Shown: one piece after another, positions 1 to 56,101 of the stretch
Layout of the letters: each line of letters opens with the position of its first letter
How positions within the stretch are numbered: position 1 is the stretch's first letter
Source: Cyanobacteria bacterium REEB446
GTDB lineage: Bacteria > Cyanobacteriota > Vampirovibrionia > LMEP-6097
Assembly (NCBI GenBank): GCA_018970325.1
Contig: JAGWWP010000003.1
Span: 15,737-79,736 of the forward strand
Reading direction: 5' to 3'
DNA: 64,000 nucleotides
Position numbers and translations under genes: made by a program
The notes under the pieces: model-generated
What the model was told of the DNA's origin: nothing
Seen by the model: the letters and a program-made list of their open reading frames with translations, nothing else
Databases searched by the model: none

Positions 1-55
1 TCGCGTGTCGCAAAGGACGACGAAAACGCAGAAATTGGAGTTCGGCTACAGTGCC
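1..55 (+). repeat. R1: core-containing element copy (GGCACTGTAGCC-type terminus), possibly cut by the window edge
   Basis: Exact core GAAAACGCAGAAATTGGAGTT at 23-43, followed by CGGCTACAGTGCC. Supplies the cobA stop codon. Confidence 0.85.
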
Positions 56-5891: not shown

Positions 5892-8765
5892 ATGAAGGGA
5901 TTTAATTTCGAGAAGAACCTAAGCCATCAATCACAGGCAGTTAAAAGCACAGTTAAGGTGTTTGAAAACATGCAAATAGAACAGGCTTCTGGAGTAAATC
6001 AAAACTATATTAATCCAGAGTTTGATTTCATGAGCAGCATGGAATACGCACGGAATATCGAACAAATTCAACAAAGTAACGGAATTACTGAAATATTGAG
6101 ATTTAACAGTAATATTCTCGACATAATGATGGAAACAGGTACAGGAAAGACTTACACTTATACCAAAACCATTTTTGAACTTAATAAACACTATGGCATT
6201 TTTAAATTTATTATAGTGGTCCCGACTCTTTCTATTAAAGCAGGAACGCTTGACTTTCTAAAATCAGCTAGTTGCAGAGAGCATTTCAGAGAACAATATA
6301 ACAAAACACTTAATCTGCACGTCGTTGAGAGTCAAAAAAATAATAAACGTAAAAAAAAAGCTTACATGCCCTCTGCTATAACGAATTTTGTACAAGCAGG
6401 TAGTTTCGAGAAAAATAGTATTCAGGTGATGCTTATTAATACAGGCATGATAAATTCCGAAACAATGCAAACAAGCTTTCACAAAAGCCTTTTGGACAAG
6501 CATACAGTCCCTTTTGATGCAATTAAGTCCACGCTGCCTTTTATAATTATTGATGAGCCTCATAAATTTGCGAAGGAGAATAAGACTTGGGCAAATATCA
6601 AAAAAATGCAAGCTCAGTTTATTCTGCGTTATGGAGCGACTTTCAATGGTTATGAAAATTTGGTCTATAACCTAACTGCAATTGATTCCTTTAATAAAAA
6701 CTTAGTGAAAGGTGTAATTGGGCACATAACTGAATTTGAGAATGGTAAAAACTCTATCGTAAAATTTATCGACTCAGACGGCACAGAAGCCAGCTTTGAA
6801 TTAACAGAAAACAATAAACATAAGACTATAAAACTTACTAAACAAGAAAGCCTTGCGAAAGTCCATCCAGAAATGACTAATTTAATAGTCGAGAATCTGA
6901 ATAAAAGTACAGTTGTCTTATCAAATGGTATTGAGATGAAGAAAGGGGATAAACTAAATCCATTTTCTTACGCTGAAACACTCCAAGAAACGATGATTAA
7001 AAAAGCCATCAAACATCATTTTGAAATAGAGAAGAAGCTACTTACTAGAGATGTAAAGGTAAAACCTATCACATTGTTCTTCATTGATAATATTGATGAA
7101 TACAGGAGTAAAGAAGGCTATATCAGAAAGACTCTCGAAGAGTGTATCAGGATTGAAATACAAGAGCTACTAAAAATAGAGGGTGATACTTTTTACAAAG
7201 CTTATCTAAAGAAGACTTTACTTGATCTACCTGGAACACACGCAGGTTATTTCTCTAAAGATAACCTAGAAAAAGATGAATCTATCGAGAAAGAGTTAAA
7301 CGAAATATTACATGATAAACAGGCCTTGCTTGATCTACAGAATATTAGGCGTTTTATTTTCTCGAAATGGACTCTACGTGAAGGATGGGACAATCCCAAT
7401 GTATTTCAGATTTGTAAGCTACGGAGCAGTGGAAGCGAAATATCTAAGCTACAAGAAGTTGGGCGTGGACTGCGTTTACCAGTAAATGAATACGGCAATC
7501 GTGTTAAGGACGAACAATTCTACCTAAATTATTTTGTAGATTTTACGGAAAGTGATTTCATAGATAAACTCGTAAACGAAATTAATCAAAAATCTGGAGC
7601 CATTTCGATTAACGAAGTCCCCGAAAAGCTTTCTGAGCCAATAATTAAGCGGATTTGTGAAGTTTATAAAACCTCTGAGGATAAGCTTTTAGAATTGCTT
7701 GACTCAAATAATGTAATCACACGCAGCAATTCATTCAAGACAAATGGCTTTGATTTTATTAAAGACAGATACCCATTGATTTTCAACGATATCAGCCCAA
7801 ATAAAATTATTAAAGCATCTGAGCCTAAAAAGAAAATCGCAGTAAGGGTCGAAAAGTATCAAGAGCTAAAAGATCTCTGGGAAAAATTAAATGAAAAAGT
7901 GATCTTGGAATACAAAATTGATCAGGAAGCCTGTTTCAAGAAACTTCTTACAGAGTTCTTAATAGAGCAGAAATATAGTTTTACATCTAGTGATGTCAGT
8001 ACAAGAATTTCAAAAGTTGAGATTATAGACGACAGAGCTATAACAGAATACTCCGAGTCAGTTTACGGCACAGAGACCATGTCAATTTCCACGATGAAGT
8101 ACAGTGATTTTCTCTTAGAACTAGCAAAAGCTTTAAGTATTAATATGAAGACATTGCATCAGGCATTCATTGATACCGATATAGATATAAACAGCTATTT
8201 AAGCCAAGGCACATTGCGGATCCTTAAAGAAAGATTTGATACTTATCTAATGGCGAATGCTATAGATAAGTTCAGCATAGAATATAAAAAAATCTCAAAT
8301 AGTATTCACCCAACCAAGCTTACAGACAGCTCTGGGAATGTGCTTAAAGAAATTTCTTCTTCTGATGTCGGTATTCAGTTTTCAGGAGAGGGAGTTGCTA
8401 AGAACTACCTACTTGAAGAACTCTACTATGACTCCGACTTAGAAAAAATAAATATAAAAACTGAGATACAGGAAGTAATTATATTTACCAAGATTCCAAA
8501 AAATTCAATTAAAATTCCTGTTGCTGGCGGTAGAACTTATTCCCCAGATTTCGCTTACGTACTGAGATTTAAAGATGGTCAGCAAAAATTACATTTTATT
8601 GTAGAAGCAAAAAATGTAACTAGTGAGAATGAGCTTAGAGAAGAAGAAAAATCAAAAATTAGACACGCCGAAAAGTTTTTTGGAGACAGTGTAAAAATTA
8701 AGTTTAAAACTCAATTTAGCAATGACAAAATAGCTGATCTAATTAAAAAGTGTTACATGGATTAA
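5892..8765 (+). CDS. res: Type III restriction enzyme Res subunit (SF2 helicase plus PD-(D/E)xK nuclease)
   Basis: Walker A METGTGKTYTY and DEAH-like IIIDEPHKF. C-terminal nuclease motif YSPDFAYV...FIVEAKN. Confidence 0.9.
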   Translation: MKGFNFEKNLSHQSQAVKSTVKVFENMQIEQASGVNQNYINPEFDFMSSMEYARNIEQIQQSNGITEILRFNSNILDIMMETGTGKTYTYTKTIFELNKHYGIFKFIIVVPTLSIKAGTLDFLKSASCREHFREQYNKTLNLHVVESQKNNKRKKKAYMPSAITNFVQAGSFEKNSIQVMLINTGMINSETMQTSFHKSLLDKHTVPFDAIKSTLPFIIIDEPHKFAKENKTWANIKKMQAQFILRYGATFNGYENLVYNLTAIDSFNKNLVKGVIGHITEFENGKNSIVKFIDSDGTEASFELTENNKHKTIKLTKQESLAKVHPEMTNLIVENLNKSTVVLSNGIEMKKGDKLNPFSYAETLQETMIKKAIKHHFEIEKKLLTRDVKVKPITLFFIDNIDEYRSKEGYIRKTLEECIRIEIQELLKIEGDTFYKAYLKKTLLDLPGTHAGYFSKDNLEKDESIEKELNEILHDKQALLDLQNIRRFIFSKWTLREGWDNPNVFQICKLRSSGSEISKLQEVGRGLRLPVNEYGNRVKDEQFYLNYFVDFTESDFIDKLVNEINQKSGAISINEVPEKLSEPIIKRICEVYKTSEDKLLELLDSNNVITRSNSFKTNGFDFIKDRYPLIFNDISPNKIIKASEPKKKIAVRVEKYQELKDLWEKLNEKVILEYKIDQEACFKKLLTEFLIEQKYSFTSSDVSTRISKVEIIDDRAITEYSESVYGTETMSISTMKYSDFLLELAKALSINMKTLHQAFIDTDIDINSYLSQGTLRILKERFDTYLMANAIDKFSIEYKKISNSIHPTKLTDSSGNVLKEISSSDVGIQFSGEGVAKNYLLEELYYDSDLEKINIKTEIQEVIIFTKIPKNSIKIPVAGGRTYSPDFAYVLRFKDGQQKLHFIVEAKNVTSENELREEEKSKIRHAEKFFGDSVKIKFKTQFSNDKIADLIKKCYMD

Positions 8766-10025
8766 ATATTTAACTATTTTCTCGGCAGCATCACCATTTC
8801 CATAGAATAAAGAATGGAGCTGCGGGCGAACTTCTGCTTGACTATTATTCATCAAGCGAGAGATAAGACTCTCTATTGCAAGTTTAATACTTTTAGAATC
8901 AGGACTTAGTCTCTCACTTAGACCCTGCTCTAAATATTCCTCTCTCTCTGCCTCCTCACGCATAACAAGAGTATATTTACTTAGATAAGCGGCTTCCTCC
9001 TGAACACCACCACTATCAGTAATTATAAAAAATGCATTCTGCATCAACTGTATAAACCCACAGTAAGTGACCGATTCCAGCAAATGAAGCCCTGAGATAT
9101 TCATAGATAATAGCTTTTCAGATAATTTTAAAAAATTCTCTCTTGCCTGCGGGTTAGTATGCAAACATACAACAAATTCGAGCATTTCTTGAGCATCTAG
9201 CGAAACTCCTATTTCCGCATTTGAGATTAACTCATTTTTAAAATTTCTTTCGCTTTTTTCTTTAAGAATTTGCAAAATACTCTTACAAAGTGCTTCCTGA
9301 AATCCATTATTAATATTCTCTCGTCTATGACTAGTGATTAAAATATATTTTTTATCTAGCTTAAATTCTTTCCTGGAACCCTGTTCAAGAATAGTAAAAT
9401 TTTTAAATTCAAAATCCTTACTATTAATTATGCTTTGAGCTTTAAAAAGAGCATCTATGCCTGTATTCCCAGTATTAAATATATTATGGGCGTGTAGCGA
9501 AACTCCAATTTCTGCGTTTTCATCGTCCTCATGATCACCGCTCCTCTTTTCTCGAATAAGTCTCTGATAGACCTTTTCACTAGGACAAAAATGATAATCC
9601 GCAATTTGACTAATAACACGCCGAGACAGTTCTTCTGGAAATGGGCTTCTGGGGTTAACTGTTCTTAAACCAGCTTCTACATGAGCGACTCTAATATGAT
9701 TATAAAAGGCTGCTAAAGCAGCCTGCACAGCACTTAGAGTATCTCCCTGCACTATAACTAAATCTGGTTTTTCTCTGCGAAACAAGAGATCTGCCTCAGT
9801 AAGAAGCTTTGCCGCTAACTCTGCAAGAGTATGTCCTTGATTCACTAGATTAAATTCATAATCTGGTCGTATACCCCAAAATTCCAGAAGATCACTGAGA
9901 ATGAGTTTATTGTGCTGGTTGGTGTGTATCCACTTAACTTCATGGCACTGCTTTTGAAACTCCAGATATACGGGTGCTAGTTTTATATATTCAGGTCTAG
10001 TACCGACTATAATAAAAATTTTCAT
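8739..10025 (-). CDS. wecB: UDP-N-acetylglucosamine 2-epimerase carrying two in-frame repeat insertions
   Basis: Matches MKIFIIVGTRPEYIKLAPV, VQGDT, HVEAGLRT and TDSGGVQEEA. Repeat-encoded DHEDDENAEIGVSLHA and SNAEIGVSLDA segments interrupt conserved blocks. Confidence 0.9.
   Translation of the reverse strand: MKIFIIVGTRPEYIKLAPVYLEFQKQCHEVKWIHTNQHNKLILSDLLEFWGIRPDYEFNLVNQGHTLAELAAKLLTEADLLFRREKPDLVIVQGDTLSAVQAALAAFYNHIRVAHVEAGLRTVNPRSPFPEELSRRVISQIADYHFCPSEKVYQRLIREKRSGDHEDDENAEIGVSLHAHNIFNTGNTGIDALFKAQSIINSKDFEFKNFTILEQGSRKEFKLDKKYILITSHRRENINNGFQEALCKSILQILKEKSERNFKNELISNAEIGVSLDAQEMLEFVVCLHTNPQARENFLKLSEKLLSMNISGLHLLESVTYCGFIQLMQNAFFIITDSGGVQEEAAYLSKYTLVMREEAEREEYLEQGLSERLSPDSKSIKLAIESLISRLMNNSQAEVRPQLHSLFYGNGDAAEKIVKYLIHVTLFN
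9191..9225 (-). repeat. R2: degenerate half-element inside wecB
   Basis: gagcatctagcgaaactcctatttccgcatttgag matches about 27 of 33 positions of the terminus-plus-core consensus. Encodes SNAEIGVSLDA. Confidence 0.7.
9488..9536 (-). repeat. R3: half-element (terminus, core, acidic arm) inside wecB
   Basis: gggcgtgtagcgaaactccaatttctgcgttttcatcgtcctcatgatc, with an exact core. Encodes DHEDDENAEIGVSLHA. Confidence 0.92.
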
Positions 10026-10056: not shown

Positions 10057-11292
10057 GTGGTTCAAGTTTCTTTAAATAAAATATCTAAAAAATATGATGA
10101 AAATTACATCATTAAAGACATCAGCCTAGAGTCTCAAGATAAAGAGTTTATAGTTTTAGTAGGACCTAGTGGTAGTGGTAAAAGTACGATTATTAGAATA
10201 ATTGCAGGATTAGAAGGTGATTTTGAAGGTGAATTAAAATTCGCTGGGGAAACCGTAAATGACTTAGCTGCAAAAGATCGTAAGCTCAGCATGGTTTTTC
10301 AGAATTATGCACTTTATCCTCATAAAACAGTTTTTGAGAATATCGCCTTCCCTTTAGTAATTAAATCTGAGCCTAAAAATCTAATTAAAGAAAAAGTACA
10401 TAAAGTAGCAGAGAAGCTTGATTTAATGAAATATCTAGAACGCAAACCTGGGCAGCTTTCTGGCGGGCAAAAGCAGAGGGTCGCCGTGGCGAGAGCGCTA
10501 ATTAAAGAACCGCAGCTTTTTTTAATGGATGAACCCTTAAGTAATCTTGATGCGAAGTTAAGAACCTCTACCAGGCAGGAAATACGTAAGCTTTATCAGG
10601 AATTAAACAGTACTTTTATCTATGTAACTCATGATCAAATCGAGGCTATGAGCCTTGGCGATAGAATCGCCATACTACATGAAGGTAAGATACAGCAGTT
10701 TGATACTCCATCCAAGATATATCATGAACCCGCAAACACTTTTGTTGCGAGCTTTATCGGCTCCCCCCCGACTAATTTACTCGAACCAAATTTAACTCTA
10801 TTTCAAGCTTTAAAAGAGGAACTGATCCCTAAACTCAATCGCGAAGATTTAATCATCGGTATTCGCCCAGAGTATTTATATTTAGCAGCAGAAATTGGAG
10901 ATTGCGAGCAGTCCCTTGAAGGGCGTGTAGCCGAACAAACAAGTTCAAGGCTGAGGAGGACGAATGACCGGAGTGTACTAGGTGTACACGAGGATCATGA
11001 GGACAACGAAAACGCAGAAAATGGAGTTCCGCTACACGCCCTTGAGGCAGAATTAGTTAATGTTGAGAACTTAGGTGAGGAGATTCTAGTTTACGCACGG
11101 CTAAATGAAAATTCAGGCAAGCTAAATGGTAGTGAATACTTGATAGCTAAAATTAATAATGCAGAGTATATCGAATTACTTCAAGAAAAATTCAGCTCCT
11201 TAAGTCCTGAAAGTCCAGTCAAATTACAGCTATTCTTTGATCCTAAAACGATTTACCTTTTTGATAAGCGATCTAGCATGCGAATCAGTTAG
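10057..11292 (+). CDS. ABC transporter ATP-binding protein (MalK/UgpC-like) with a roughly 50-aa repeat-derived insert
   Basis: GTG start. Walker A GPSGSGKST, signature LSGGQKQRV, Walker B LFLMDEPLSNLD. The insert sits in the C-terminal regulatory domain. Confidence 0.88.
   Translation: MVQVSLNKISKKYDENYIIKDISLESQDKEFIVLVGPSGSGKSTIIRIIAGLEGDFEGELKFAGETVNDLAAKDRKLSMVFQNYALYPHKTVFENIAFPLVIKSEPKNLIKEKVHKVAEKLDLMKYLERKPGQLSGGQKQRVAVARALIKEPQLFLMDEPLSNLDAKLRTSTRQEIRKLYQELNSTFIYVTHDQIEAMSLGDRIAILHEGKIQQFDTPSKIYHEPANTFVASFIGSPPTNLLEPNLTLFQALKEELIPKLNREDLIIGIRPEYLYLAAEIGDCEQSLEGRVAEQTSSRLRRTNDRSVLGVHEDHEDNENAENGVPLHALEAELVNVENLGEEILVYARLNENSGKLNGSEYLIAKINNAEYIELLQEKFSSLSPESPVKLQLFFDPKTIYLFDKRSSMRIS
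10888..10915 (+). repeat. R4a: solo half-element (core plus GGGACTGCTCGC-type terminus) in the ABC ATPase gene
   Basis: gcagaaattggagattgcgagcagtccc is identical in type to the right end of the purH copy. Confidence 0.8.
10921..11041 (+). mobile_element. R4b: full-length 121-bp palindromic element in the ABC ATPase gene
   Basis: 16-nt TIRs GGGCGTGTAGCCGAAC / GTTCCGCTACACGCCC (15 of 16). Flanked by TTGAA and TTGAG. Core has 1 mismatch. Confidence 0.92.
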
Positions 11293-11304
11293 AATATAAA
11301 GATT

Positions 11305-12114
11305 ATGGCGATCGGCTCTGAAACATCAGGAAAAAAAATAGACCTTAACTTAAACCTAGCTGAACACTATGGCTTAGGTAGAGAAGCTCTAGAAAGAGAT
11401 TTATTACCTTTCGCAAGCTCTGTAAGTATAGCTACTGGCGCACATACTGGGGATATCTTCCAAGCTAATCTTGCTTTAGAAGCTTGCCAAGCCTATCCTA
11501 ATACGAGCATAGGAGCTTTAATCTCTTATCCTGACGTTATTGGTTTCGGCATTAGAAAAGTTCAGCTAACTAGAGAGGAGCTTAGAGCCACTATTTTGGC
11601 TCAATTAGGAGCTTTAGCAGCTTTAGCTAAACAGTTTAACTATGAATTAAATCATGTCAGGATTCATGGATACCTTTATCACCAAATGCTTACGAATTAC
11701 TCTGTGGCAGAGACTGTCACTAAGACTATCCAAGACTTTAGTCAGTGGTTAATTATCGTCGCACCTTATAGTAAAGTCCTTAAAGAAGTTATATCGTGGG
11801 TTAATCTCAGAGTGAGTTATGAAGCTAGGGTAGATTTAAGATACGACAGTGAAGCACATCCCCTCGCTTATGAATATGATAAAGATGGGAATTTAGATAT
11901 AAATGTAATCGCAGATAGAGCAAGAAAGCTTATCTATGATTCTAAAGTGGTTTCAGAAGAAGGCGTAGAGAATAAAATCCAGTTTGAAACTATACATTTG
12001 CCAAGTTCCCCTAAAAATGCTCTAGAGATAGCTAAATTACTTAAGGGCATGGTGCCTGTATTAAGCTCTTTAAAAGAGTTTGATTATAGTGTTTATCTAC
12101 CAGAGTTTCTGTAA
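11305..12114 (+). CDS. LamB/YcsF (PxpA, 5-oxoprolinase subunit A) family protein, divergent
   Basis: Collinear with the PxpA pattern (IDLN..L.E, SS.SIA.G.H.GD, HV..HG.LY.Q). Several conserved D/H positions are substituted. Confidence 0.6.
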   Translation: MAIGSETSGKKIDLNLNLAEHYGLGREALERDLLPFASSVSIATGAHTGDIFQANLALEACQAYPNTSIGALISYPDVIGFGIRKVQLTREELRATILAQLGALAALAKQFNYELNHVRIHGYLYHQMLTNYSVAETVTKTIQDFSQWLIIVAPYSKVLKEVISWVNLRVSYEARVDLRYDSEAHPLAYEYDKDGNLDINVIADRARKLIYDSKVVSEEGVENKIQFETIHLPSSPKNALEIAKLLKGMVPVLSSLKEFDYSVYLPEFL

Positions 12115-12134: not shown

Positions 12135-12169
12135 AGCACCGCTGCATAACTCCATTCCCTGCATTTTTC
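12135..12169 (-). repeat. R17: possible decayed copy in the pxpA-like/crtB convergent spacer
   Basis: agcaccgctgcataactccattccctgcatttttc is about 70% identical to the terminus-plus-core consensus. Confidence 0.4.
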
Positions 12170-16169: not shown

Positions 16170-16214
16170 AGCACTGTTGCCGAACTCCAATTTCTGCGTG
16201 TTCGTCGTCCTCAT
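16170..16214 (-). repeat. R5: half-element abutting the start codon of the PPC-repeat gene
   Basis: agcactgttgccgaactccaatttctgcgtgttcgtcgtcctcat, core with 1 mismatch. Creates an upstream in-frame ATG. Confidence 0.88.
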
Positions 16215-30605: not shown

Positions 30606-31511
30606 TTATAGTATCTCAGATAATTCACTAAAATCATTAATGACCTTTCTAGTTCTCTCGATAGAATTATTACTAGACGCTGATTTATCAAGATTCTCAG
30701 TATCTTTCAAAGCCTCTCTTACGACTTGTACCGTTAGCAGCCCAGCTCGTTCACTTGCCCTACATTCATCTTTAATATCAGTCAAAAATAAAATATGCTC
30801 TGGACTTACTTTAATATCATCAGCGATTTTCAAATAAGATTCATATTCTTTCTTAGAACCTATCTTAGTATCATAGAAACCAGAAAATAAATAACGAATA
30901 TCACCGAATTCAGAAAATTCAAAAAACAATCTCTGAGCTTGAATAGACCCTGATGAATAGACATAGATCGGCAAGCCTTTGCCTTTCATATTTAAGAAAA
31001 AATCAAGGGCATCTTGGTATAAAGGTGCCTTAAATAAACCTTTCCTAAAACCTTCTTGCCAGATTAATCCCTGTAAATCTTTTAGGGGGGTGATTTTTTT
31101 ATCTTCCAGACTCCAAGTTTTTAAAGCCTGAATAGCAGTATATACCTGTGTTTCAAAAACAGCATCTTGGGCGTGTAGCGAAACTCCAATTTCCGCGTTT
31201 TCGTCGTCCTCATGATCCTCATGTACATTGAGTACACTGCGGTCATTCGTCCTCCTCGGTCTTGAACTTGTTCGTTTGGCTACACGCCCATCTAAGTGCG
31301 ACAAAACTCCAATTTCTGCGTTTTCGCCCCTTTTGTTTTGCTTAAGCTCTTCTAAAGTAGCCTCAATAATAGAGAGTAAGACTGGATCATGCTCAAAGTT
31401 AGTTAATATAAAATCTTCTATTCTCTCGCTTGCATAAGGGAAAAGAACATCTTTAACAAAACTAATTGAACTAATAGTTCCTTCGATATCGGTAAGTATG
31501 GCTTTAGGCAT
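30606..31511 (-). CDS. mtnC: enolase-phosphatase E1 (methionine salvage) with a roughly 55-aa repeat-derived insert
   Basis: HAD motif AILTDIEGT. Operon with mtnD and mtnB. Contains one full 121-bp element plus an adjacent half-element. Confidence 0.85.
   Translation of the reverse strand: MPKAILTDIEGTISSISFVKDVLFPYASERIEDFILTNFEHDPVLLSIIEATLEELKQNKRGENAEIGVLSHLDGRVAKRTSSRPRRTNDRSVLNVHEDHEDDENAEIGVSLHAQDAVFETQVYTAIQALKTWSLEDKKITPLKDLQGLIWQEGFRKGLFKAPLYQDALDFFLNMKGKGLPIYVYSSGSIQAQRLFFEFSEFGDIRYLFSGFYDTKIGSKKEYESYLKIADDIKVSPEHILFLTDIKDECRASERAGLLTVQVVREALKDTENLDKSASSNNSIERTRKVINDFSELSEIL
31169..31289 (-). mobile_element. R6a: full-length 121-bp element inside mtnC
   Basis: TIRs GGGCGTGTAGCGAAAC / GTTTGGCTACACGCCC. 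Flanked by ATCTT and ATCTA. Encodes GRVAKRTSSRPRRTNDRSVLNVHEDHEDDENAEIGVSLHA. Confidence 0.93.
31296..31330 (-). repeat. R6b: half-element 6 nt from R6a inside mtnC
   Basis: gtgcgacaaaactccaatttctgcgttttcgcccc, with an exact core. Encodes GENAEIGVLSH. Confidence 0.88.
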
Positions 31512-32076: not shown

Positions 32077-32795
32077 ACTTCTACAACCTCTTCCTTGCCC
32101 TGCATAACTTTATTTAATTGCATCTCAAGTAAATAGGATTCAATTAAAGTATTCAAAGCATCTACGTGTCTAATCGTTTCACTCTGAGTGCTTCCCCAAG
32201 TATAAAGACCATGTCCCGCTAATAGATAAGCATGTAAAGGTTTTTCTGAATTAGCAAGCTTCTCAAGAACTGGCTGAATTAAATCAGCTAGTTCTTCTAT
32301 GTTTTGGTTATTAGGGAAGATCGGTAAAATTTCCGTATAATCATGAGTCAGAACACCCGAAAGAGCCTTTAAAAGCTCAAATCCCTCTAGTTTAAGTGCC
32401 TTAATTCCTTGCTTTAAAAGAACTTTAGATAGAACGGCACTAGATGATGAATGAAAGTGGGCTATAAACTTAGCGTTAGGGAAAGTTCTATATACCTGAG
32501 TATGCAAAAGAGTTTCAGCCGATGGTTTTAGAGACGGCGGCACAACTCCATTTTCTGCGTTTTCATCGTCCTCTTTTAAATTAGAAGCTTTAGCTCTACC
32601 GAGAAAATCCACTAGCATTAAATCCCCTTCTGTTAAAGTCGCTTTATCTTTACCAGAGACACTGATTAAAATTTCTTGATTTTCTAGGCGAGCAGAAAAA
32701 TTACCAGAAGTCGCTGGTACTAAGCCTTTTACTGCACAGAAATGAGCGACTTTAATTAGATCTTGTTTTATTGAGTCGAGATTAAGCACATTCAT
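32073..32795 (-). CDS. mtnB: methylthioribulose-1-phosphate dehydratase (class II aldolase/adducin fold) with a short repeat insert
   Basis: Aldolase_II family: PATSGNFS, HFHS, GHGLYTWG. Operon context. EDDENAENGV insert. Confidence 0.85.
   Translation of the reverse strand: MNVLNLDSIKQDLIKVAHFCAVKGLVPATSGNFSARLENQEILISVSGKDKATLTEGDLMLVDFLGRAKASNLKEDDENAENGVVPPSLKPSAETLLHTQVYRTFPNAKFIAHFHSSSSAVLSKVLLKQGIKALKLEGFELLKALSGVLTHDYTEILPIFPNNQNIEELADLIQPVLEKLANSEKPLHAYLLAGHGLYTWGSTQSETIRHVDALNTLIESYLLEMQLNKVMQGKEEVVEV
32536..32573 (-). repeat. R7: half-element inside mtnB
   Basis: ggcggcacaactccattttctgcgttttcatcgtcctc, core with 1 mismatch. Encodes EDDENAENGVVPP. Confidence 0.88.
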
Positions 32796-35062: not shown

Positions 35063-35110
35063 GGGCACTATTGCTGAACTCCAATTTCTGCGTTTTTGGC
35101 AATAGTGCCT
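35063..35110 (-). repeat. R8: short hairpin form (stem-core-stem) in the trmFO / AAA-ATPase divergent spacer
   Basis: Perfect 11-bp stem GGCACTATTGC / GCAATAGTGCC encloses the core (1 mismatch). Confidence 0.9.
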
Positions 35111-38371: not shown

Positions 38372-39586
38372 TTACCCACGATAAATCGGTAAAATAAACT
38401 TAAAAGCACTACCCTGTCCAAGCTCACTCTCACACCAGATCTTACCACCATGAGCTTCAATAATCTGCCTAGAGATCCATAAACCGAGTCCAGTGCCACC
38501 GATTTTACGTGTATCACTGTTATCTACTCGCATAAAACGCTCAAAAATCTGTCCTATATTCTCTTTAGGAATACCCATTCCATTATCACTAATGGATACA
38601 GAAATTTCATCAAAAAAATTCTCTGGACTCGCTGCCGTGACTATATCTATTTTACAGTTAATCACTTTTCTATCTGGCTTAGAAACCTCTATTGGTGAAT
38701 ACTTTATGGCATTCGAGAATAAATTATGAAATACCCTCTCTACAGCGACTACGTCACAGAGTATATAGGGCATATCAGAATTCACAGACCACTTAACCGA
38801 ATATGGTTTATGCTGATCCTGAATCTCATCCCATGCTTTTCTTGCAAGAGTCGATATCTCAACTGCCTCGAAATCGCTAAGAAATAATTCATCATTTGAC
38901 TCTAAGCGCGATAAATCAAGAAAATCATCTATTAGACCAGCGAGTTTTTTAGAAGCCTGATAGATTTCCTCTAAATATTTTTTTGTCAGCTCAGGGCTAT
39001 ATGAAGCATTTAACAAAAGCTCACTAAAGCCTAATATCGCAGACATCGGAGTCCTTAATTCGTGCGAAACAGTGCCTAATATCTGGGTCTTATTTTCGTT
39101 AAGCTTAACTAACCTTTCATTATTTAACTGAATATTCTCTAAAGCTGATAGTAAGGAAATTTGATCTAATATTGCACTCATCATTCTATTTAAAAGCTCT
39201 AAATCCTTCTTTGGGAGAGCGCCTGGGGACGGCTCGCATTCTTCAGCTTCTGCATTTTTAGCTAAATTACCAGCTGATTTAGTTCGGCTAAAAACAGTGA
39301 AGGCAGAACTAATATGGCCTTCAGTTTCTTTATGTATGTAATAAATCTTTTTAAATTCACTAGTGTCAGATTCAGTAATGGAAAATTTAGCTGCTTGCTT
39401 ATCCTCTTTCCGTGAATAATATATTTTCCCTTCGTAACCAGAAAGATAAAAATAAGCGAAGTCAGCATTTTGAGAAGAAAATTTTTCTACTAATAATTTA
39501 CAGGTCTTATTTGCAAGTTCTACAAAATTTTTAACATTTAAGATATCAATAAATTCGATTAAATTTTTGGCATCATTATTAGGCAT
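38372..39586 (-). CDS. cytoplasmic sensor histidine kinase (HisKA plus HATPase_c)
   Basis: H-box SHELRTPMSAILGFSELL, N-box and G-boxes (DNGMGIP, GGTGLGL). No TM segments. Contains a degenerate repeat copy. Confidence 0.85.
   Translation of the reverse strand: MPNNDAKNLIEFIDILNVKNFVELANKTCKLLVEKFSSQNADFAYFYLSGYEGKIYYSRKEDKQAAKFSITESDTSEFKKIYYIHKETEGHISSAFTVFSRTKSAGNLAKNAEAEECEPSPGALPKKDLELLNRMMSAILDQISLLSALENIQLNNERLVKLNENKTQILGTVSHELRTPMSAILGFSELLLNASYSPELTKKYLEEIYQASKKLAGLIDDFLDLSRLESNDELFLSDFEAVEISTLARKAWDEIQDQHKPYSVKWSVNSDMPYILCDVVAVERVFHNLFSNAIKYSPIEVSKPDRKVINCKIDIVTAASPENFFDEISVSISDNGMGIPKENIGQIFERFMRVDNSDTRKIGGTGLGLWISRQIIEAHGGKIWCESELGQGSAFKFILPIYRG
39225..39258 (-). repeat. R16: degenerate half-element inside the histidine kinase gene
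   Basis: gggacggctcgcattcttcagcttctgcattttt matches about 28 of 34 positions of the GGGACTGCTCGC-type end. Encodes KNAEAEECEPSP (compare NAEIEDCEQS in PurH). Confidence 0.65.
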
Positions 39587-43399: not shown

Positions 43400-45094
43400 A
43401 TGAAAAAAAAGGCTTTAATTTCTGTTTTCGATAAATCTAAGTTAGAAGAACTTTTAGAAGTTCTTGATACTGAATATGATTTTATCAGTAGCTCTGGCAC
43501 AGCGACTTTCATTAAAAATGCTGGTTATAAGGTAACTGAGGTTCAGGATCTTAGTAATTTCCCCGAAATACTTTCAGGCAGGGTGAAAACATTACATCCG
43601 AAGATTTTTGGAGCCATTCTTTATGACAGAAATAATCACCAGCACTTAGAAGAAATAGAAAAAGAGAATATAGTATCTATAGACCTTGTTATCGTTAATC
43701 TTTATCCTTTCGCAGAAGTTACCAAAAACCTTTCATTGAGTGGCACTGACTTAAATGGGACTGTAGCCAAACGAACAAGTTCAAGGCTGAGGAGGACGGA
43801 GGATCATGAGGACGACGAAAACGCAGAAATTGAAGATTGCGAGCAGTCCTATGCTGATTTAGATATAGCTATAGAAAATATAGATATAGGCGGACCAAGC
43901 CTTTTAAGAGCAGCTTCTAAAAATTTCAGGCACGTTATTACACTGTCTAATCCTGATCAATACGATGCTTTTACTGAGAGATATAAAAGTAAATCTCTAG
44001 ATCTAAATTACAGAAAACAGCTAGCTGCTGAGACTTTCAGAATGACCAGCGCCTATGATGCTGTAATAGAAAGATTTCTAGCTCAAGCTAATGCTGATTC
44101 GTTTAAGACTAATGCTGAAATTGACTTGACGGCAGAGAATTTATTACCAGAAAAGCTTACTTTAAATTTAGAAAGAGTTAAAACCTTAAGCTATGGTGAA
44201 AACCCTCATCAGCAGGCTGGTCTTTATGTAGAATCTAATTCAAAATATAGAGGGCTTGCTGATGCAAATAAACTACATGGAAAGGATCTAAGTTTTAATA
44301 ATTTACTTGATCTTTCTGCTGCCTATAACATCGTCCAAGAATATGGTCCAGAGATTCCTTGTGCCGTTATCGTTAAACACAATAATCCTTGCGGTGTCGC
44401 TATAGCTCCAAATATCACTTTAGCCTTTATAGAAGCCCTTGCAGCAGATTCTGTAAGCGCATTTGGTGGAGTGGTAGCTTTAAATAATCCCGTAGACATA
44501 GCTCTAGCAAATGAATTAAGTCAAATTTTCCTAGAAGCAGTTATAGCTCCGAGCTTCACCCCTGAAGCCTTTGCGATACTTACCCAGAAGAAAAATATCA
44601 GATTAATAGAGCATCCTAATTTTAAAAATTCTCAAAATCTTTTAGATATTAAAAAAATTGATGGTGGTTTCCTTATACAAACAGCTAATCATCAGCTTAT
44701 AGACCAGACTTTATTAAAAACCGTTACTAAGACGAGCATAGACGAAAGCCTGTGGGTGGATCTCATACTAGCTTTAAAAGTGGTTAAGCACGTTAAATCT
44801 AATGCTATAGTGACGACTCAAGGCGGCAGGACACTGGGAATCGGTGTAGGTCAGACGAATAGAGTGAAGTCAGTAGAAGATGCTCTGCGTAATTTTGATT
44901 TAGATACTAGGGGAGCAGTTATGGCTTCTGATGGTTTTTTCCCATTTGCTGATAATATACACCTTGCTGCCCAAAACCATATAGCTGCGATTATTCAACC
45001 AGGTGGTTCTATTCGTGATGAAGAAGTTATTAAAGCCTGTGACGAATTAGGGATTGCGATGGCGTTTACACATATAAGGCATTTTAAGCATTAA
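43400..45094 (+). CDS. purH: bifunctional AICAR formyltransferase / IMP cyclohydrolase with a 31-33 aa repeat insert
   Basis: MGS-like N-terminus (ALISVFDKS, RVKTLHP) and AICARFT domain. Insert VAKRTSSRLRRTEDHEDDENAEIEDCEQS. Confidence 0.93.
   Translation: MKKKALISVFDKSKLEELLEVLDTEYDFISSSGTATFIKNAGYKVTEVQDLSNFPEILSGRVKTLHPKIFGAILYDRNNHQHLEEIEKENIVSIDLVIVNLYPFAEVTKNLSLSGTDLNGTVAKRTSSRLRRTEDHEDDENAEIEDCEQSYADLDIAIENIDIGGPSLLRAASKNFRHVITLSNPDQYDAFTERYKSKSLDLNYRKQLAAETFRMTSAYDAVIERFLAQANADSFKTNAEIDLTAENLLPEKLTLNLERVKTLSYGENPHQQAGLYVESNSKYRGLADANKLHGKDLSFNNLLDLSAAYNIVQEYGPEIPCAVIVKHNNPCGVAIAPNITLAFIEALAADSVSAFGGVVALNNPVDIALANELSQIFLEAVIAPSFTPEAFAILTQKKNIRLIEHPNFKNSQNLLDIKKIDGGFLIQTANHQLIDQTLLKTVTKTSIDESLWVDLILALKVVKHVKSNAIVTTQGGRTLGIGVGQTNRVKSVEDALRNFDLDTRGAVMASDGFFPFADNIHLAAQNHIAAIIQPGGSIRDEEVIKACDELGIAMAFTHIRHFKH
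43757..43850 (+). mobile_element. R9: 94-bp internally deleted element inside purH
   Basis: Left arm gggactgtagccaaacgaacaagttcaaggctgaggaggacgga joins directly to ggatcatgaggacgacgaaaacgcagaaattgaagattgcgagcagtcc. It lacks the central palindrome. Confidence 0.9.
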
Positions 45095-45132
45095 GGACGT
45101 GTAGCGAAACTCTAATTGCTGCGTTTTCGCCC
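45095..45132 (-). repeat. R10: half-element filling the purH/prfB convergent spacer
   Basis: ggacgtgtagcgaaactctaattgctgcgttttcgccc, core with 2 mismatches. Starts 1 nt after the purH stop and ends 3 nt before the prfB stop. Confidence 0.85.
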
Positions 45133-45135
45133 GCC

Positions 45136-46267
45136 TTATGACCCTGTTTTAAACTTTAAAAACTCTCTAATAAATTCATCTAAAACTTCCGTACCGTTAA
45201 TTACAGCATCAACATCACGGGTCTCATACTTAGTTCTGTGATCCTTAACTCTTCCTTCGTCAAAGACATAGGAGCGAATAGCATTTCCCCAAGAAGCATT
45301 CAAAACTTCTCCTTTAAGCTCAGCGAGCTTCTTCTGCTCTTCCTCTTCCTGTAAGGCTAGCAGCTTAGATTTAATCTGTTCTATAGCTCTATCTTTATTT
45401 TGAGCTTGGCTGCGCTCTTGAGTACATTTCACAGCAAACCCAGTAGGTATGTGCCTTACCCTAACAGCTGTCTCGACTTTATTTACATTCTGTCCGCCCG
45501 CTCCACCAGAGCGCATAGTAGTAATTTCCAAATCAGATTCTTTAAAACCTTTTAGTTCAGTAGAACTATCTATTACAGGACAGACTTCAATCCCCGCAAA
45601 ACTGGTCTGCCTGCTATCAGCAGAAGATTTAAATGGAGATTTGCGCACTAGCCTGTGAACGCCTTTCTCCGCTGAAAGATAACCATAGGCATAAGGACCA
45701 GAAATTTTTAAAGATGCTGATTTAATCCCAGCTTCCTCGCCATCAGATTTATCTAAAAGCTCTACTGTAAAGCCTTTCGTTATCTCCGCCCAGCGTGTAT
45801 ACATTCTTAAAAGAATCTCTGCCCAATCCTGAGCATCAGTACCACCAGCTCCAGCATTGATATTTATAATCGCAGATGATTTATCATAATCCCCAGACAT
45901 CATCAGGAGAAACTCATAGTCCTCTAATTCTGTTAATAATTTAAAATATTCTTCGCGAATTAATTCATCTAGATCCTGCTTTTCGAATTCTTCCTCTGTC
46001 TCAGCTAGCATCTCCTGCATAGCTAAAAAATCTTCTAGACGCCTTGCCCAAGAGTCTATTTTATCTATCTGCTCTTTTTTAAAACTAATCTCTTTGGATA
46101 TAGCTTGAGCCTCGCTGACATTATTCCAAAAGCCCTCGACTAAGGTCTTCTCCTCTAAAATCTTTAATTCTTCTTTGAGCTCATTAAGGTCAAAGACACT
46201 CCTTGATTGAATTATATTTACTAGAAATTATCTCGGAATCTATAGCTGTTTGAAGATATTCTGGCAT
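45136..46267 (-). CDS. prfB: peptide chain release factor 2 (requires a programmed +1 frameshift)
   Basis: SPF and GGQ motifs. A 25-codon upstream frame ([25 protein letters not shown]) ends at CTT TGA C. The +1 frame then continues DLNELKEEL... into the long ORF. Confidence 0.9.
46189..46204 (-). promoter_or_regulatory. prfB +1 programmed frameshift site
   Basis: On the minus strand: AAGGAG (SD-like), TGT, then CTT TGA C. Same architecture as the classical RF2 autoregulatory site. Confidence 0.85.
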
Positions 46268-46304: not shown

Positions 46305-46349
46305 GGGACTGCTCGCAAACCTGCAATTTCTGCATTTTTGAGCAGTCCC
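46305..46349 (-). repeat. R11: short hairpin form upstream of prfB
   Basis: Perfect 10-bp stem GGGACTGCTC / GAGCAGTCCC around a diverged core (cctgcaatttctgcattttt). Flanked by ACGTT and ATGTT. Confidence 0.85.
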
Positions 46350-53722: not shown

Positions 53723-54976
53723 ATGCAAGCTTTAGCGAAGGAAACTATTCCCATTCACTGGAATCATGAAAACAGGTCTGTATCTATCATCGACCAAACT
53801 CTTCTACCTTATGAATTAAAGTGGGTAGAAATAAAGACTTATGAGGCGATGGCAAATGCTATTGAGAATATGCTTCTACGTGGAGCACCTTTAATCGGCA
53901 TCGCTGCTGCATATGGCATGGTACTTGCTTTACAGGAATTTATAGAGACTAACGCTCGTTATCACAGTTTAGAAAAAGATCATGAAAACAATGAAAATAT
54001 AAAAAATGCTGCTCTGAACCAGTCTTTAGAAGATAGATTAATTAATTTTCTAAACCAAGCCTCAAATAGACTACTTTCGACACGCCCGACTGCGGTAAAT
54101 CTAGCTTGGGCATTAGGAGAAATGGCAGCCACTATTCAAAAAAATCACAAAGATGAAGCTCTGCAATCGTCACTTGAGCAAAATACTTACTTGCAAAAAC
54201 TACACCAAATACTTTTAAATAAAGCTCTCTGGATTCAAGAAGATGATTATAATCGCTGCAAAGCAATGTCTGAACATGCTTTAGCTTTAGTAAAAAAGGA
54301 TTTTGCTGAAAAAATTAAAACACAAGGTGATAAGGTGGTTGAACAAACAGGTAAATTAAATGTTCTCACTCACTGTAATGCTGGCGCCTTAGCTACTGGC
54401 GGCTATGGCACTGCTTTAGGCTTAATCAGAAGTTTACATCGCGAAGGCTTACTTAATATGGTTTATTCTGACGAAACTCGCCCTCGCCAGCAGGGTTCTC
54501 GCCTCACCGCTTGGGAATTAGCACAGGAAGGCATTCCAGTCACTATGATCTGCGATACTATGGCAGGTTTTATGATGAATAAAGGAATGATAGACCTAGT
54601 AGTAGTAGGTAGTGATCGCATTACTGCAAATGGTGATGTCGCTAATAAAATAGGTACTTACCAAGTAGCGATTCTTGCAAAACATCACCAAATACCTTTC
54701 TATGTCCTAGCCCCAGAAAGCACTATAGATTTAAATTTAAAGACTGGCCATGAAATCGAGATAGAATATCGAAACACAGAAGAGGTTAGCCACATAAATG
54801 GCAAAGCCTGCACTTTTATTAAGAGGAACGACGAAAACGCAGAAATTGGAGTTCGAGAACAGTGCCGAGACTTAAATTCCGTTACTGAGGTGATGTTCCT
54901 TAACCCTGGCTTCGACGTCACTCCAAATTCATTAATTAGTGGAATAATTACAGAAAATGGCATAATCGGTATGTAG
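53723..54976 (+). CDS. mtnA: S-methyl-5-thioribose-1-phosphate isomerase
   Basis: IF-2B family blocks: RGAPLIGI, THCNAGALAT, VGSDRITANGDVANKIGT. Carries an in-frame half-element (NDENAEIGVREQC). Its TAG stop is supplied by full-length element R13. Confidence 0.9.
   Translation: MQALAKETIPIHWNHENRSVSIIDQTLLPYELKWVEIKTYEAMANAIENMLLRGAPLIGIAAAYGMVLALQEFIETNARYHSLEKDHENNENIKNAALNQSLEDRLINFLNQASNRLLSTRPTAVNLAWALGEMAATIQKNHKDEALQSSLEQNTYLQKLHQILLNKALWIQEDDYNRCKAMSEHALALVKKDFAEKIKTQGDKVVEQTGKLNVLTHCNAGALATGGYGTALGLIRSLHREGLLNMVYSDETRPRQQGSRLTAWELAQEGIPVTMICDTMAGFMMNKGMIDLVVVGSDRITANGDVANKIGTYQVAILAKHHQIPFYVLAPESTIDLNLKTGHEIEIEYRNTEEVSHINGKACTFIKRNDENAEIGVREQCRDLNSVTEVMFLNPGFDVTPNSLISGIITENGIIGM
54823..54866 (+). 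repeat. R12: half-element inside mtnA
   Basis: gaggaacgacgaaaacgcagaaattggagttcgagaacagtgcc, with an exact core. Encodes RNDENAEIGVREQC. Confidence 0.9.
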
Positions 54977-55087
54977 CCGAACGAACAAGTTCAAGGCTGA
55001 GGAGGACGAATGACCGCATTGCACCAAGCGTACATGAAGATCATGAGGACGACGAAAACGCAAAAATTGGAGTTCCGCTACACGCCC
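54967..55087 (+). mobile_element. R13: full-length 121-bp element at the 3' end of mtnA
   Basis: Flanked by a perfect 5-bp direct repeat ATAAT (54962-54966 and 55088-55092). The right TIR is intact and the left TIR is mutated (CGGTATGTAGCC). Its peptide frame is still open. Confidence 0.92.
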
Positions 55088-55117: not shown

Positions 55118-56101
55118 ATGAAAGTAGAACTTTTGACTGAAGAAAAAACCAAACTACCTATATTTCCAGATATTACTATCGAAACGAAAGCACAGATTAC
55201 AGGTACTTTAGAAAAAGTTGGGATGGAGAAAGTTGAACTTGCTCTTAAGCTTCAATCTAGTAAAGGAGAAATCACTCAAATTCCAGCTTTCGCAAACCTT
55301 TATGTCAGCCTAGATGCTCCTCATAAGAAAGGGATACATATGTCTAGGCTCTTATTACAAGCACATAAGACTTTTGATGAAGAGGCTTTAAGCTATGAAT
55401 CTCTTGGGGATTTAGTTAAGAAATTAAAAGAATCTCATGCAGATATGAGTTTAAATGCTTTTGTTGAAATCGAGTTTGATTATATGTTACGCAGACCAGC
55501 TCTAGTGAGCGATAACGATGCTTGGAGATCTTACCCAGTGGTTTTAAAAGCTGAGATAAACCATGTAGATGAAATATCCTTCACGACCAGCATTCGAATA
55601 ACCTACTCTAGTACCTGCCCTTGCTCGGCAGCACTATCAAGACAGCTTATACAAGAAGAGTTTTTAAAAACATTTGGGGATAAAGCTCCTAGTGTTACAG
55701 ATATATATAACTGGTTAGGTAAAGAAGAAAGCCAAGTAGCTACTCCTCATAGTCAAAGAAGCTATGCTGATGTAGATTTTCTGCATACTGGAGAGTCTAA
55801 ACTTAGTGGGACTGCTCGCAAACGTAAAAGTTCAAGCGAATCCCTCAATCTAGATGAGATGATAGATGGTCTAGAAAAGGCTATCTCTACACCGGTACAA
55901 GCAGCTGTCAAAAGAGAAGATGAACAAGAGTTCGCTAGGCTTAATGGCAGAAACTTTATGTTTAGTGAAGATGCTGCAAGAAGATTAAAGTTTTTCTGTG
56001 AGAGCCTAGAATACCTTTCAGATTTTAGTATTAAAGTACAGCATTTAGAGAGTCTTCATGCACATAATGCCGTAGCCTTTGCGAGAAAATCATCTAGCTG
56101 A
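55118..56101 (+). CDS. folE2: GTP cyclohydrolase FolE2/MptA family
   Basis: GIHMSRL, STCPCS, PHSQRS and ESLHAHNAVA blocks. Contains a degenerate left-arm repeat fragment. Confidence 0.85.
   Translation: MKVELLTEEKTKLPIFPDITIETKAQITGTLEKVGMEKVELALKLQSSKGEITQIPAFANLYVSLDAPHKKGIHMSRLLLQAHKTFDEEALSYESLGDLVKKLKESHADMSLNAFVEIEFDYMLRRPALVSDNDAWRSYPVVLKAEINHVDEISFTTSIRITYSSTCPCSAALSRQLIQEEFLKTFGDKAPSVTDIYNWLGKEESQVATPHSQRSYADVDFLHTGESKLSGTARKRKSSSESLNLDEMIDGLEKAISTPVQAAVKREDEQEFARLNGRNFMFSEDAARRLKFFCESLEYLSDFSIKVQHLESLHAHNAVAFARKSSS
55808..55843 (+). repeat. R14: left-arm fragment inside folE2
   Basis: gggactgctcgcaaacgtaaaagttcaagcgaatcc versus the purH left arm gggactgtagccaaacgaacaagttcaaggctgagg. 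Encodes GTARKRKSSSES. Confidence 0.6.

Follow-up and report, generated by a model that had tools for sequence, protein, structure and literature searches.

The locus analyzed here raises the question of why a short dispersed repeat lies inside many unrelated housekeeping genes, with nearly all of these copies read in one orientation and one frame. The stretch of DNA, referred to below as the window, comprises 64,000 nt of contig JAGWWP010000003.1 of Cyanobacteria bacterium REEB446 (positions 15,737 to 79,736, G+C 36%), and the repeat is a 121-nt element that adds a charged peptide to the proteins of its host genes. Its behavior is best read as that of selfish DNA filtered by purifying selection, by analogy with the Rickettsia palindromic elements (RPEs). 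The repeat would be a MITE (a miniature transposable element with inverted repeats) or MITE-like sequence, that is, a non-autonomous DNA transposon, whose genic copies have been sorted by selection and have decayed in situ; we place the joint probability of these three parts at roughly 0.8.

Orientation and Reading Frame of Intragenic Copies

When 185,579 species genomes were scanned for the 21-nt core of the element, GAAAACGCAGAAATTGGAGTT, at least 109 loci were obtained; together with the window they formed the sample for a census of orientation and frame. The sample contains 215 cores, 116 (54%) of them inside long open reading frames (ORFs). Sense frame 0 accounts for 111 of these intragenic cores, another sense frame for 3 and the antisense strand for 2 (P = 3e-79 against an expectation of 1/6); one of the two antisense cores is a stray match in a gammaproteobacterial contig. 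When orthologous sites were merged, 81 of 86 clusters were in sense frame 0 (P = 1e-56 against 1/6). By comparison, copies located between co-directional genes are divided into 18 sense and 19 antisense (Fisher P = 3e-12 versus genic copies), indicating that both orientations are inserted and that the genic bias arises afterwards. Oriented insertion was rejected on the basis of the same 18:19 ratio.

The initial annotation of the window, made from its letters alone, had stated that intragenic copies always share one orientation and frame, had suggested purifying selection against disruptive insertions as the reason, and had named a wider census as the observation that could overturn the finding. 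All internal copies in the window and 111 of 116 in the wider sample agree with this statement, although "always" fails for one copy at the 3' end of mtnA (54968 to 55087). The contrast between genes and spacers in turn supports the suggested selection.

Spacer copies are about fivefold more frequent between convergent than between divergent genes (34 vs. 7), which suggests that promoter regions are avoided or that terminator regions are preferred. We also considered intergenic copies as hidden gene splits, and rejected this idea: even in a permissive test, only 12 of 99 excisions recreated a long ORF running across the site, and several of these 12 were merely neighboring co-directional genes.

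Stops occur in four of the six frames of the element. Among full copies, no genic case (0 of 31) and at most 2 of 34 intergenic ones are free of stops in sense frames 1 and 2, and every copy has stops in two of the antisense frames; frame 0 of the sense strand is open throughout the 31 genic copies and in 25 of the 34 intergenic ones. The third antisense frame is open in 21 of 31 genic and 24 of 34 intergenic copies (~70%), and thus the bias is not explained by stop codons alone. None of 38 genic full copies uses this frame (P ~2e-10 if both open frames were equally acceptable), which implies that properties of the peptide matter besides stop codons. The initial annotation was right in finding stops on the opposite strand; it had noted one such frame instead of two.

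The peptide of sense frame 0, GRVAKRTSSRLRRTNDRSVL.VHEDHEDDENAEIGV..., is very hydrophilic (mean grand average of hydropathy, GRAVY, -1.23), first basic and then acidic, and is predicted to be disordered; the consensus reported for it in the initial annotation proved correct. The antisense peptide, GRVAELQFLRFRCPHDP...SSSALNLFVRLH, has a mean GRAVY of -0.27 and contains Cys and Phe. We infer that the exclusion of this fifth frame reflects the less hydrophilic, Cys- and Phe-containing nature of its product.

No constraint on the sense peptide was detected beyond the open frame when genic and intergenic full copies were compared: synonymous and non-synonymous differences from the consensus number 82 and 106 in genic copies, and 66 and 113 in intergenic copies (P = 0.20). 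This similarity favors tolerated junk over a gained function, and the inserted peptide is most likely such junk. An earlier suggestion that the His/Asp/Glu-rich part binds metal, or that the inserts have otherwise gained a function, found no evidence in these ratios.

Copies in the Window

The core has 13 matches in the window at up to three mismatches, versus none in 100 shuffles, and 17 at up to five. A profile of the family built from 61 full copies identified 20 copies or remnants in the 64 kb, which are given below with the state of the orthologous site in related loci of the scan (L numbers).

14 to 56, plus strand: right-arm remnant (core and right terminal repeat) in an ORF entering from the left window edge; reads DDENAEIGVRLQC; stop at ~70.
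9176 to 9222, minus strand: degenerate right-arm remnant, the second insert in wecB, SNAEIGVSLDAQ; sense frame 0; predicted coil 270-283.
9483 to 9538, minus strand: right-arm copy in wecB, GDHEDDENAEIGVSLHA; sense frame 0; corresponds to a 16-residue gap versus PDB 3dzc; predicted coil 164-177.
10888 to 10917, plus strand: in the ABC ATPase gene, a partial right arm belonging to another subfamily (end GCGAGCAGTCC); the full copy follows directly downstream.
10921 to 11041, plus strand: full 121-nt copy in the ABC ATPase gene; sense frame 0; flanks TTGAA/TTGAG; 202-nt form at the same site in L010.
12136 to 12167, minus strand: degenerate right arm in the convergent spacer between gene 11293-12114 (plus) and a phytoene/squalene synthase gene (minus); empty in L080 and L079, longer in L010.
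16170 to 16214, minus strand: right-arm copy just upstream of where a PPC-domain protein gene starts; empty in L010.
31169 to 31289, minus strand: full 121-nt copy in mtnC, GRVAKRTSSRPRRTNDRSVLNVHEDHEDDENAEIGVSLHA; sense frame 0; flanks TAGAT/AAGAT; long hairpin.
31295 to 31328, minus strand: partial right arm in mtnC, ENAEIGVLSHLD; adjoins the full copy, the two cores being 123 nt apart.
32526 to 32573, minus strand: insert of 48 nt in mtnB, EDDENAENGVVPPSLK, consisting of a right arm (43 nt) and the 5-nt direct repeat TAAAA; empty in L021.
35063 to 35110, minus strand: mini form in a spacer, made up of the left repeat, the core and the right repeat, GGCACTATTGC ... GCAATAGTGCC; ~46 nt; only a remnant in L021.
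39227 to 39259, minus strand: strongly degenerate remnant in the histidine kinase gene, KNAEAEECEPS; sense frame 0.
43754 to 43851, plus strand: internally deleted copy in purH, GTVAKRTSSRLRRTEDHEDDENAEIEDCEQS; sense frame 0; 30 nt retained in L090.
45094 to 45146, minus strand: right-arm copy in the convergent spacer between purH and a release-factor gene.
46305 to 46340, minus strand: degenerate intergenic right arm upstream of the release-factor gene.
54819 to 54866, plus strand: 45-nt right-arm insert in mtnA, RNDENAEIGVREQCR; sense frame 0; absent in L086.
54968 to 55087, plus strand: full copy at the mtnA 3' end, between mtnA and folE2; mtnA enters it in a different frame and stops at the TAG of its left repeat.
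55808 to 55836, plus strand: left-arm remnant in folE2, GTARKRKSS; sense frame 0; no other solo left arm occurs in the window.
61435 to 61466, minus strand: right-arm remnant in the amidohydrolase gene, GNAGIGVQRQ; sense frame 0; nearly full copy at this site in L068.
63028 to 63062, plus strand: in a gene for a GAF-domain protein, degenerate right-arm remnant close to the N-terminus, reading ANAENGLVHRS; sense frame 0.

Inserts are carried by 11 of the ~56 window ORFs of at least 100 codons (~20%). The host genes are wecB (two copies), mtnC, mtnB, mtnA, purH, folE2 and the genes for the ABC ATPase, histidine kinase, amidohydrolase and GAF protein. All window internal copies are sense, their cores being read in the ...HEDHEDDENAEIGV... 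frame (ENAEIGV) or a decayed version of it. Every host locus named in the initial annotation, including the possible GAF gene, indeed carries a sense-frame copy or remnant (11 window genes); beyond these loci, six copies are intergenic or at gene edges (starting at 12136, 16170, 35063, 45094, 46305 and 54968) and one (14 to 56) lies in the ORF cut by the window edge. The segment 31164 to 31330, on which the initial annotation had centered, consists of the full copy and the adjacent partial right arm inside mtnC (ORF 30606 to 31511, 301 codons), whose product is an enolase-phosphatase matching the human E-1 enzyme 1yns (E = 9e-40).

Two copies at gene edges touch the ends of their neighbors. 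The mtnA stop is the TAG within terminal repeat GTGTAGCC of the copy at 54968 to 55087, and the C-terminus reads ...GIIGM* in the window versus ...GIMSV* in L086 (~6700-6870), so that the extreme C-terminus was rewritten by the insertion. The copy at 16170 to 16214 supplies an upstream in-frame ATG (MRTTNTQKLEFGNSA-MRVRTF...) ahead of the secreted PPC-domain protein, and may affect where translation begins or the 5' UTR.

Anatomy of the Element

The distance from end to end is 121 nt in the window and related loci, and a long form measures 202 nt. Neither form contains a transposase ORF, the sole open frame encoding a peptide of 40 or 67 residues. The three full window copies, at 10921, 31169 and 54968, are 86-88% identical. 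The ends form a perfect 12-nt inverted repeat (GGGCGTGTAGCC...GGCTACACGCCC), perfect inverted ends of 12-14 nt occur in every subfamily, and a small palindrome lies in the center of the 121-nt element. Folding yields a single long hairpin (-59 kcal/mol, z = -4.5; no shuffle equally stable). A search of the whole window at Rfam gathering thresholds matched no RNA family.

Copies are flanked by a 5-bp target-site duplication, often perfect (AAGAT, AATTT, TTTTT, CAGAG, AATAT, CTGTT, CAGAA). In the window, the flanks are TTGAA/TTGAG in the ABC ATPase gene and TAGAT/AAGAT in mtnC. Empty sites show the target 5-mer once and filled sites twice. The 202-nt form, with 5-nt duplications ATGAG/ATGAG and ATTAA/ATTAA, has the same arms around an 81-nt center bearing two extra hairpins. 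Element and duplication together add 126 or 207 nt, i.e., 42 or 69 codons per insertion; since this length is a multiple of three, codons downstream stay in frame.

Subfamilies are distinguished by their terminal 12 nt (GGGCGTGTAGCC, GGCACTGTTGCC, GGGACTGCTCGC and GAGACCGCTGCAC), and the changes are always matched at the two ends. A GTAG tag is limited to GGGCGTGTAGCC, the commonest ends, and is lacking in the other three. A route of mobilization that depends on structure would be compatible with such ends, which co-vary while the asymmetric interior stays constant.

An internally deleted derivative of 75 nt that keeps both ends was observed three times, always in intergenic DNA (L067 ~2241-2326, L055 ~5628-5715 and L055 4341-4413). 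With its duplication it amounts to 80 nt, which would break a reading frame.

Inserts Are Not Ancestral and Lie in Predicted Loops

The possibility that the peptide is an ancestral domain, which the initial annotation had listed among its own refutations, was examined and rejected: the segment is absent from solved homologs, varies among close relatives, and its peptide occurs in only 81 protein clusters. MtnC residues 43-123 align with 1yns residues 51-89, MtnB residues 68-90 with 2irp residues 71-76, and PurH residues 108-153 with 4ehi residues 131-136, none of these structures containing the segment. The alignment of WecB with 3dzc has a clean 16-residue gap and a second gap. In distant and even in close orthologs of MtnC and WecB, the insert is missing or of another length; WecB measures 391-542 aa within the clade versus 365-395 aa outside it. 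The same codon position of MtnC shows a series of alleles:

Distant orthologs, site empty: 222-240 aa
Clade members, site empty: 247-257 aa
Core alone: 258 aa
Right half alone: 271 aa
One full copy: 299 aa
Window, with 1.3 copies: 301 aa
Long form: 322-324 aa
P0032, with a 41-residue unit repeated 3.3 times in tandem: 383 aa

Predicted structures, whose use as a check had also been proposed, suggest that the inserts occupy positions compatible with the fold, in loops between secondary-structure elements. In the AlphaFold model of MtnC (mean predicted local distance difference test, pLDDT, 81), residues 64-109 have pLDDT below 50 and are modeled as a coil between helices 43-66 and 112-135. In the WecB model (mean pLDDT 91), the two inserts are placed in coils 164-177 and 270-283, which are the blocks of lowest pLDDT (59-67 and 65, respectively).

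Decay and Tandem Growth of Copies

Genes contain full, right-arm and core-only forms in numbers (38/41/28) much like those in spacers (38/35/23). Although five of the six frames of right-arm remnants lack stops, the genic remnants are essentially all in sense frame 0. The best explanation, judging from alleles at orthologous sites, is that short copies mostly inherit their frame from full copies through in-frame deletion in situ. The MtnC orthologs P0041 (full copy) and P0049 (right half) have the right junction in common; the purH insert is ~98 nt in the window and 30 nt in L090; L068 has a nearly full copy where the window amidohydrolase gene has a remnant. At the ABC ATPase site, the 202-nt form of L010 and the 121-nt form of the window have the same TTGAA/TTGAG duplication. 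Full and short alleles with common junctions at one site show deletion in place. Short forms tend to have their left boundary at a (CAT)GAGGACGACG motif inside the element, which resembles some target duplications, and deletion via microhomology is thus possible.

Copies may also multiply in tandem. P0032 has 3.3 copies where the window has 1.3, and its repeat unit corresponds to the two cores 123 nt apart, so that the expansion looks like unequal recombination between adjacent cores. In L108 (1744-2152), three head-to-tail copies with a period of ~127 nt lie in non-coding DNA with stops in all frames, indicating that tandem amplification also occurs outside genes. At one codon position of the ABC ATPase gene, the window (10888-11041) has a remnant of one subfamily beside a full copy of a different one, and L010 (7316-7551) has the 202-nt form; this would reflect either repeated hits on permissive loops or conversion of copies in situ.

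Occurrence in Related Genomes

Nearly all of the listed loci come from five metagenome-assembled genomes (MAGs) labeled Vampirovibrionia, Melainabacteria, Caenarcaniphilales, "bacterium" or "Proteobacteria". Ten of the loci align with the window over kilobases at 88-95% DNA identity, and these MAGs are therefore close relatives of the source organism. Empty and filled alleles were found at several orthologous sites: mtnB (vs. L021), 12148 (vs. L080 and L079), 16183 (vs. L010) and mtnA at 54819 (vs. L086), as well as between L098 and L007 and between L055 and L026. Genomes with multiple copies are Vampirovibrionia, Melainabacteria or Caenarcaniphilales MAGs, and none is labeled Rickettsiales among the matches listed. 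The MAG "Proteobacteria bacterium WB4_1_1465" (L007, L009, L013 and other RFQS01 contigs) is 92-95% identical to the window at the DNA level and shares the element; its label is probably wrong.

An exhaustive search of 1.84 billion representative proteins recovered the peptide in just 81 clusters, a minimum count given that proteins with the insert are grouped with orthologs that lack it. The longer members of these clusters are unrelated proteins such as RadA, TsaE, Sua5, a PMT-type glycosyltransferase and Dam methylase. A peptide search of a 5.8-billion-protein index returned just short spurious ORFs on spacer copies and is uninformative on hosts. One protein, P0293 (427 aa), has a RadA-like N-terminus (zinc ribbon and AAA) and a C-terminus of the chorismate-binding type, and the element peptide occupies residues 172-214, where the two meet; it is probably an assembly chimera made by the repeat. 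A literature search for an account of this element in Melainabacteria found none.

Mechanism and Alternative Explanations

In the mechanism that we favor, the element inserts in either orientation, in spacers and genes alike, each insertion keeping the downstream frame by adding 126 or 207 nt. Its single usable sense frame, stop-free, supplies a very hydrophilic peptide predicted to be disordered. That orientation and frame would be tolerated in surface loops, and nearly all others would be purged by purifying selection. Fixed copies decay as in-frame deletions remove internal sequence, for the most part from the left arm, until ...DDENAEIGV... remnants are left, as several orthologous sites show, and some may expand through unequal recombination of adjacent cores, to judge from the allelic series. 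The 5-bp duplication points to mobilization in trans by a DDE-type transposase.

Several points weigh against this mechanism. The selection step assumes that the antisense peptide is harmful, given that ~70% of full copies are open in that frame and no genic one uses it. The terminal 12 nt co-vary among subfamilies, and the interior (~95 nt) is at least 90% conserved; variable ends with a conserved interior are the opposite of a typical MITE recognized by a transposase. We looked for a transposase, or a longer element with the same ends, in the window and next to solo left arms (~750 kb of loci) and found neither; the ORFs that follow these arms look ordinary and non-transposase as judged by their N-terminal sequences only. 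The 202-nt form had no match in plasmid and phage collections. The window contains 14 solo right arms and 1 solo left arm, an excess that random decay does not predict, and some short copies have 5-nt direct repeats of their own (mtnB, TAAAA). Finally, the loci were sampled via the core motif, and gene calls in the census relied on long-ORF heuristics rather than on a trained gene finder.

Some of these points fit an unlikely alternative, namely that the family, instead of being a passive MITE sorted by selection, is a transposon lineage that has adapted to life inside genes and has itself been selected for coding compatibility. This idea draws on the multiple-of-three lengths, on the hydrophilic frame that is open even in spacers, on a conserved interior between ends whose co-variation preserves pairing only, and on the 14:1 ratio of solo right to left arms. 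If it were true, the co-varying ends and solo right arms would point to mobilization that is structure-specific, one-ended or single-stranded, or copies from the 3' end.

That the peptide was instead recruited for a function as a mobile, charged or His/Asp/Glu-rich module (metal binding, a disordered linker or an interaction tag) and kept by positive selection seems distinctly unlikely. In its favor, the interior is at least 90% conserved, most intergenic full copies (25 of 34) also have sense frame 0 open, the 121- and 202-nt forms are both open in frame 0 and both add a multiple of three, and the same loops were hit repeatedly (MtnC and ABC ATPase). Against it, conservation is equal in spacers and genes, where synonymous/non-synonymous ratios are also alike. 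Moreover, at 88-95% DNA identity the inserts vary in presence, length and copy number, empty alleles included, remnants of all lengths persist, the inserts are predicted to be disordered (MtnC pLDDT below 50), and the host proteins are functionally unrelated.

A bias set at the moment of insertion, through targeting coupled to transcription or translation or through RNA-mediated copying with 5' truncation, would account for the constant 3' end, the variable 5' end and the 14:1 excess of solo right arms. It would also suit the 5-nt direct repeats of some short copies and the fact that short copies, stop-free in five of six frames, are essentially all in sense frame 0. We regard it as very improbable: the orientation of copies in co-directional spacers is balanced (18 vs. 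19), no known mechanism senses a reading frame, full and short alleles with common junctions reflect deletion in situ, and the 5' boundaries of short forms at (CAT)GAGGACGACG fit microhomology-mediated deletion.

Similarly, it is very doubtful that the element is a REP/REPIN-type palindrome moved as a single-stranded hairpin by a RAYT (IS200/IS605-like) transposase. The long hairpin, the REPIN-like size, the GTAG in the commonest repeat GGGCGTGTAGCC, the end co-variation that preserves pairing rather than sequence, and the preference for convergent spacers (34 vs. 7) are all reminiscent of such palindromes. Against this, clear 5-bp target-site duplications are present here, the other subfamilies are without GTAG, over half of the copies are intragenic, and no RAYT gene was seen in material short of whole genomes. 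To our knowledge, REP/RAYT and IS200/IS605 transposition leaves no target-site duplication.

The initial annotation had raised removal of the inserts, which before the mature protein is formed could act through translational bypass, protein splicing or excision of the hairpin from the RNA and would leave the enzymes free of the peptide. This is hardly credible in spite of the very stable RNA hairpin (-59 kcal/mol), as RNA-level removal predicts no constraint on orientation, frame or stops whereas the constraint is nearly absolute, decayed remnants unable to form the hairpin are still in frame, and there are no intein or intron features and no Rfam match.

Significance

In-frame colonization of essential genes by selfish DNA on a large scale has so far had essentially one example, the RPEs of Rickettsia, and a 2024 review described it elsewhere as only "conceivable" (PMC10969869). 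The Vampirovibrionia element would constitute a second, independent large-scale case, in another phylum and at comparable or higher density. Unlike RPEs, it has clear transposon hallmarks. Several genomes at 88-95% identity also offer a natural allelic series (empty, remnant, half, full and tandem) at the same codon of the same enzyme. This series opens questions about how much disordered insertion proteins tolerate and where, how fast inserts decay, and whether they seed new protein segments. The repeats also have practical consequences, as they inflate and vary protein lengths (e.g., the 391-542 aa of WecB) and probably cause assembly chimeras and spurious small ORFs in the annotation of Vampirovibrionia MAGs.

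Comparison with Known Systems

Tn3-derived miniature elements (TIMEs) have a 5-bp target-site duplication like that of the present element. TIMEs carry ~38-bp Tn3-type inverted repeats (GGGG...TAAG) at both ends and go with a Tn3-family transposase in the host; the ends here start with GGG or GAG and are inverted over only 12-16 nt. The left arm may resemble the inner part of the Tn3 repeat.

REP/REPIN sequences (PMC3733652) resemble the element in their ~100-nt hairpin doublets, high copy number and retained pairing of the ends, and in the GTAG of its commonest end. REPs are extragenic and without duplication, and have a conserved GTAG or CGTC tag where the palindrome ends, whereas this element has a 5-bp duplication, is largely intragenic (54% of cores) and lacks GTAG in most of its subfamilies, so that the tag is not universal in it.

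The element also resembles bacterial MITEs such as Correia/NEMIS, ERIC, RUP, BOX and bcr1. Both are small and without transposase, with terminal inverted repeats, a duplication and a hairpin, and both occur in many copies that are polymorphic among relatives and prefer gene 3' ends. The four features found here, namely a short sequence (below ~500 bp) without transposase, terminal inverted repeats, a duplication of fixed length and polymorphic multi-copy dispersal, are among those that define MITEs. In-frame fusion of such elements with ORFs is occasional (PMC3184786, PMC10969869). Those MITEs are overwhelmingly intergenic and in-frame internal insertion is exceptional among them, in contrast to the 54% of sampled cores that are intragenic here; moreover, the ends of the present element are its least conserved part, and no parent insertion sequence was identified in the window, next to solo left arms in the loci or in plasmid and phage collections.

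The closest parallel in behavior is provided by the RPEs, as the initial annotation had recognized. RPE-1 and its relatives (Ogata et al. 2000, as summarized in PMC10969869 and PMC3184786) are palindromes of ~105-150 bp, nearly half of which lie in frame inside unrelated genes and encode a conserved peptide. Likewise, the present element is a dispersed palindromic repeat of ~100-150 nt with about half of its copies inside unrelated housekeeping genes, in one orientation and frame, encoding a conserved hydrophilic peptide at sites that appear compatible with the fold. Both decay in place, and no transposase is known for either. The element is taken as an analogue of RPEs and not as a member: its hosts are Vampirovibrionia/Melainabacteria MAGs, not alpha-proteobacteria, and no relationship in sequence is expected. 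Unlike RPEs, it has clear 12-nt terminal inverted repeats, a 5-bp duplication and a length that is a multiple of three, its subfamilies consist of co-varying ends around a constant interior, and it has been amplified in tandem within a gene, reaching 3.3 copies in one MtnC.

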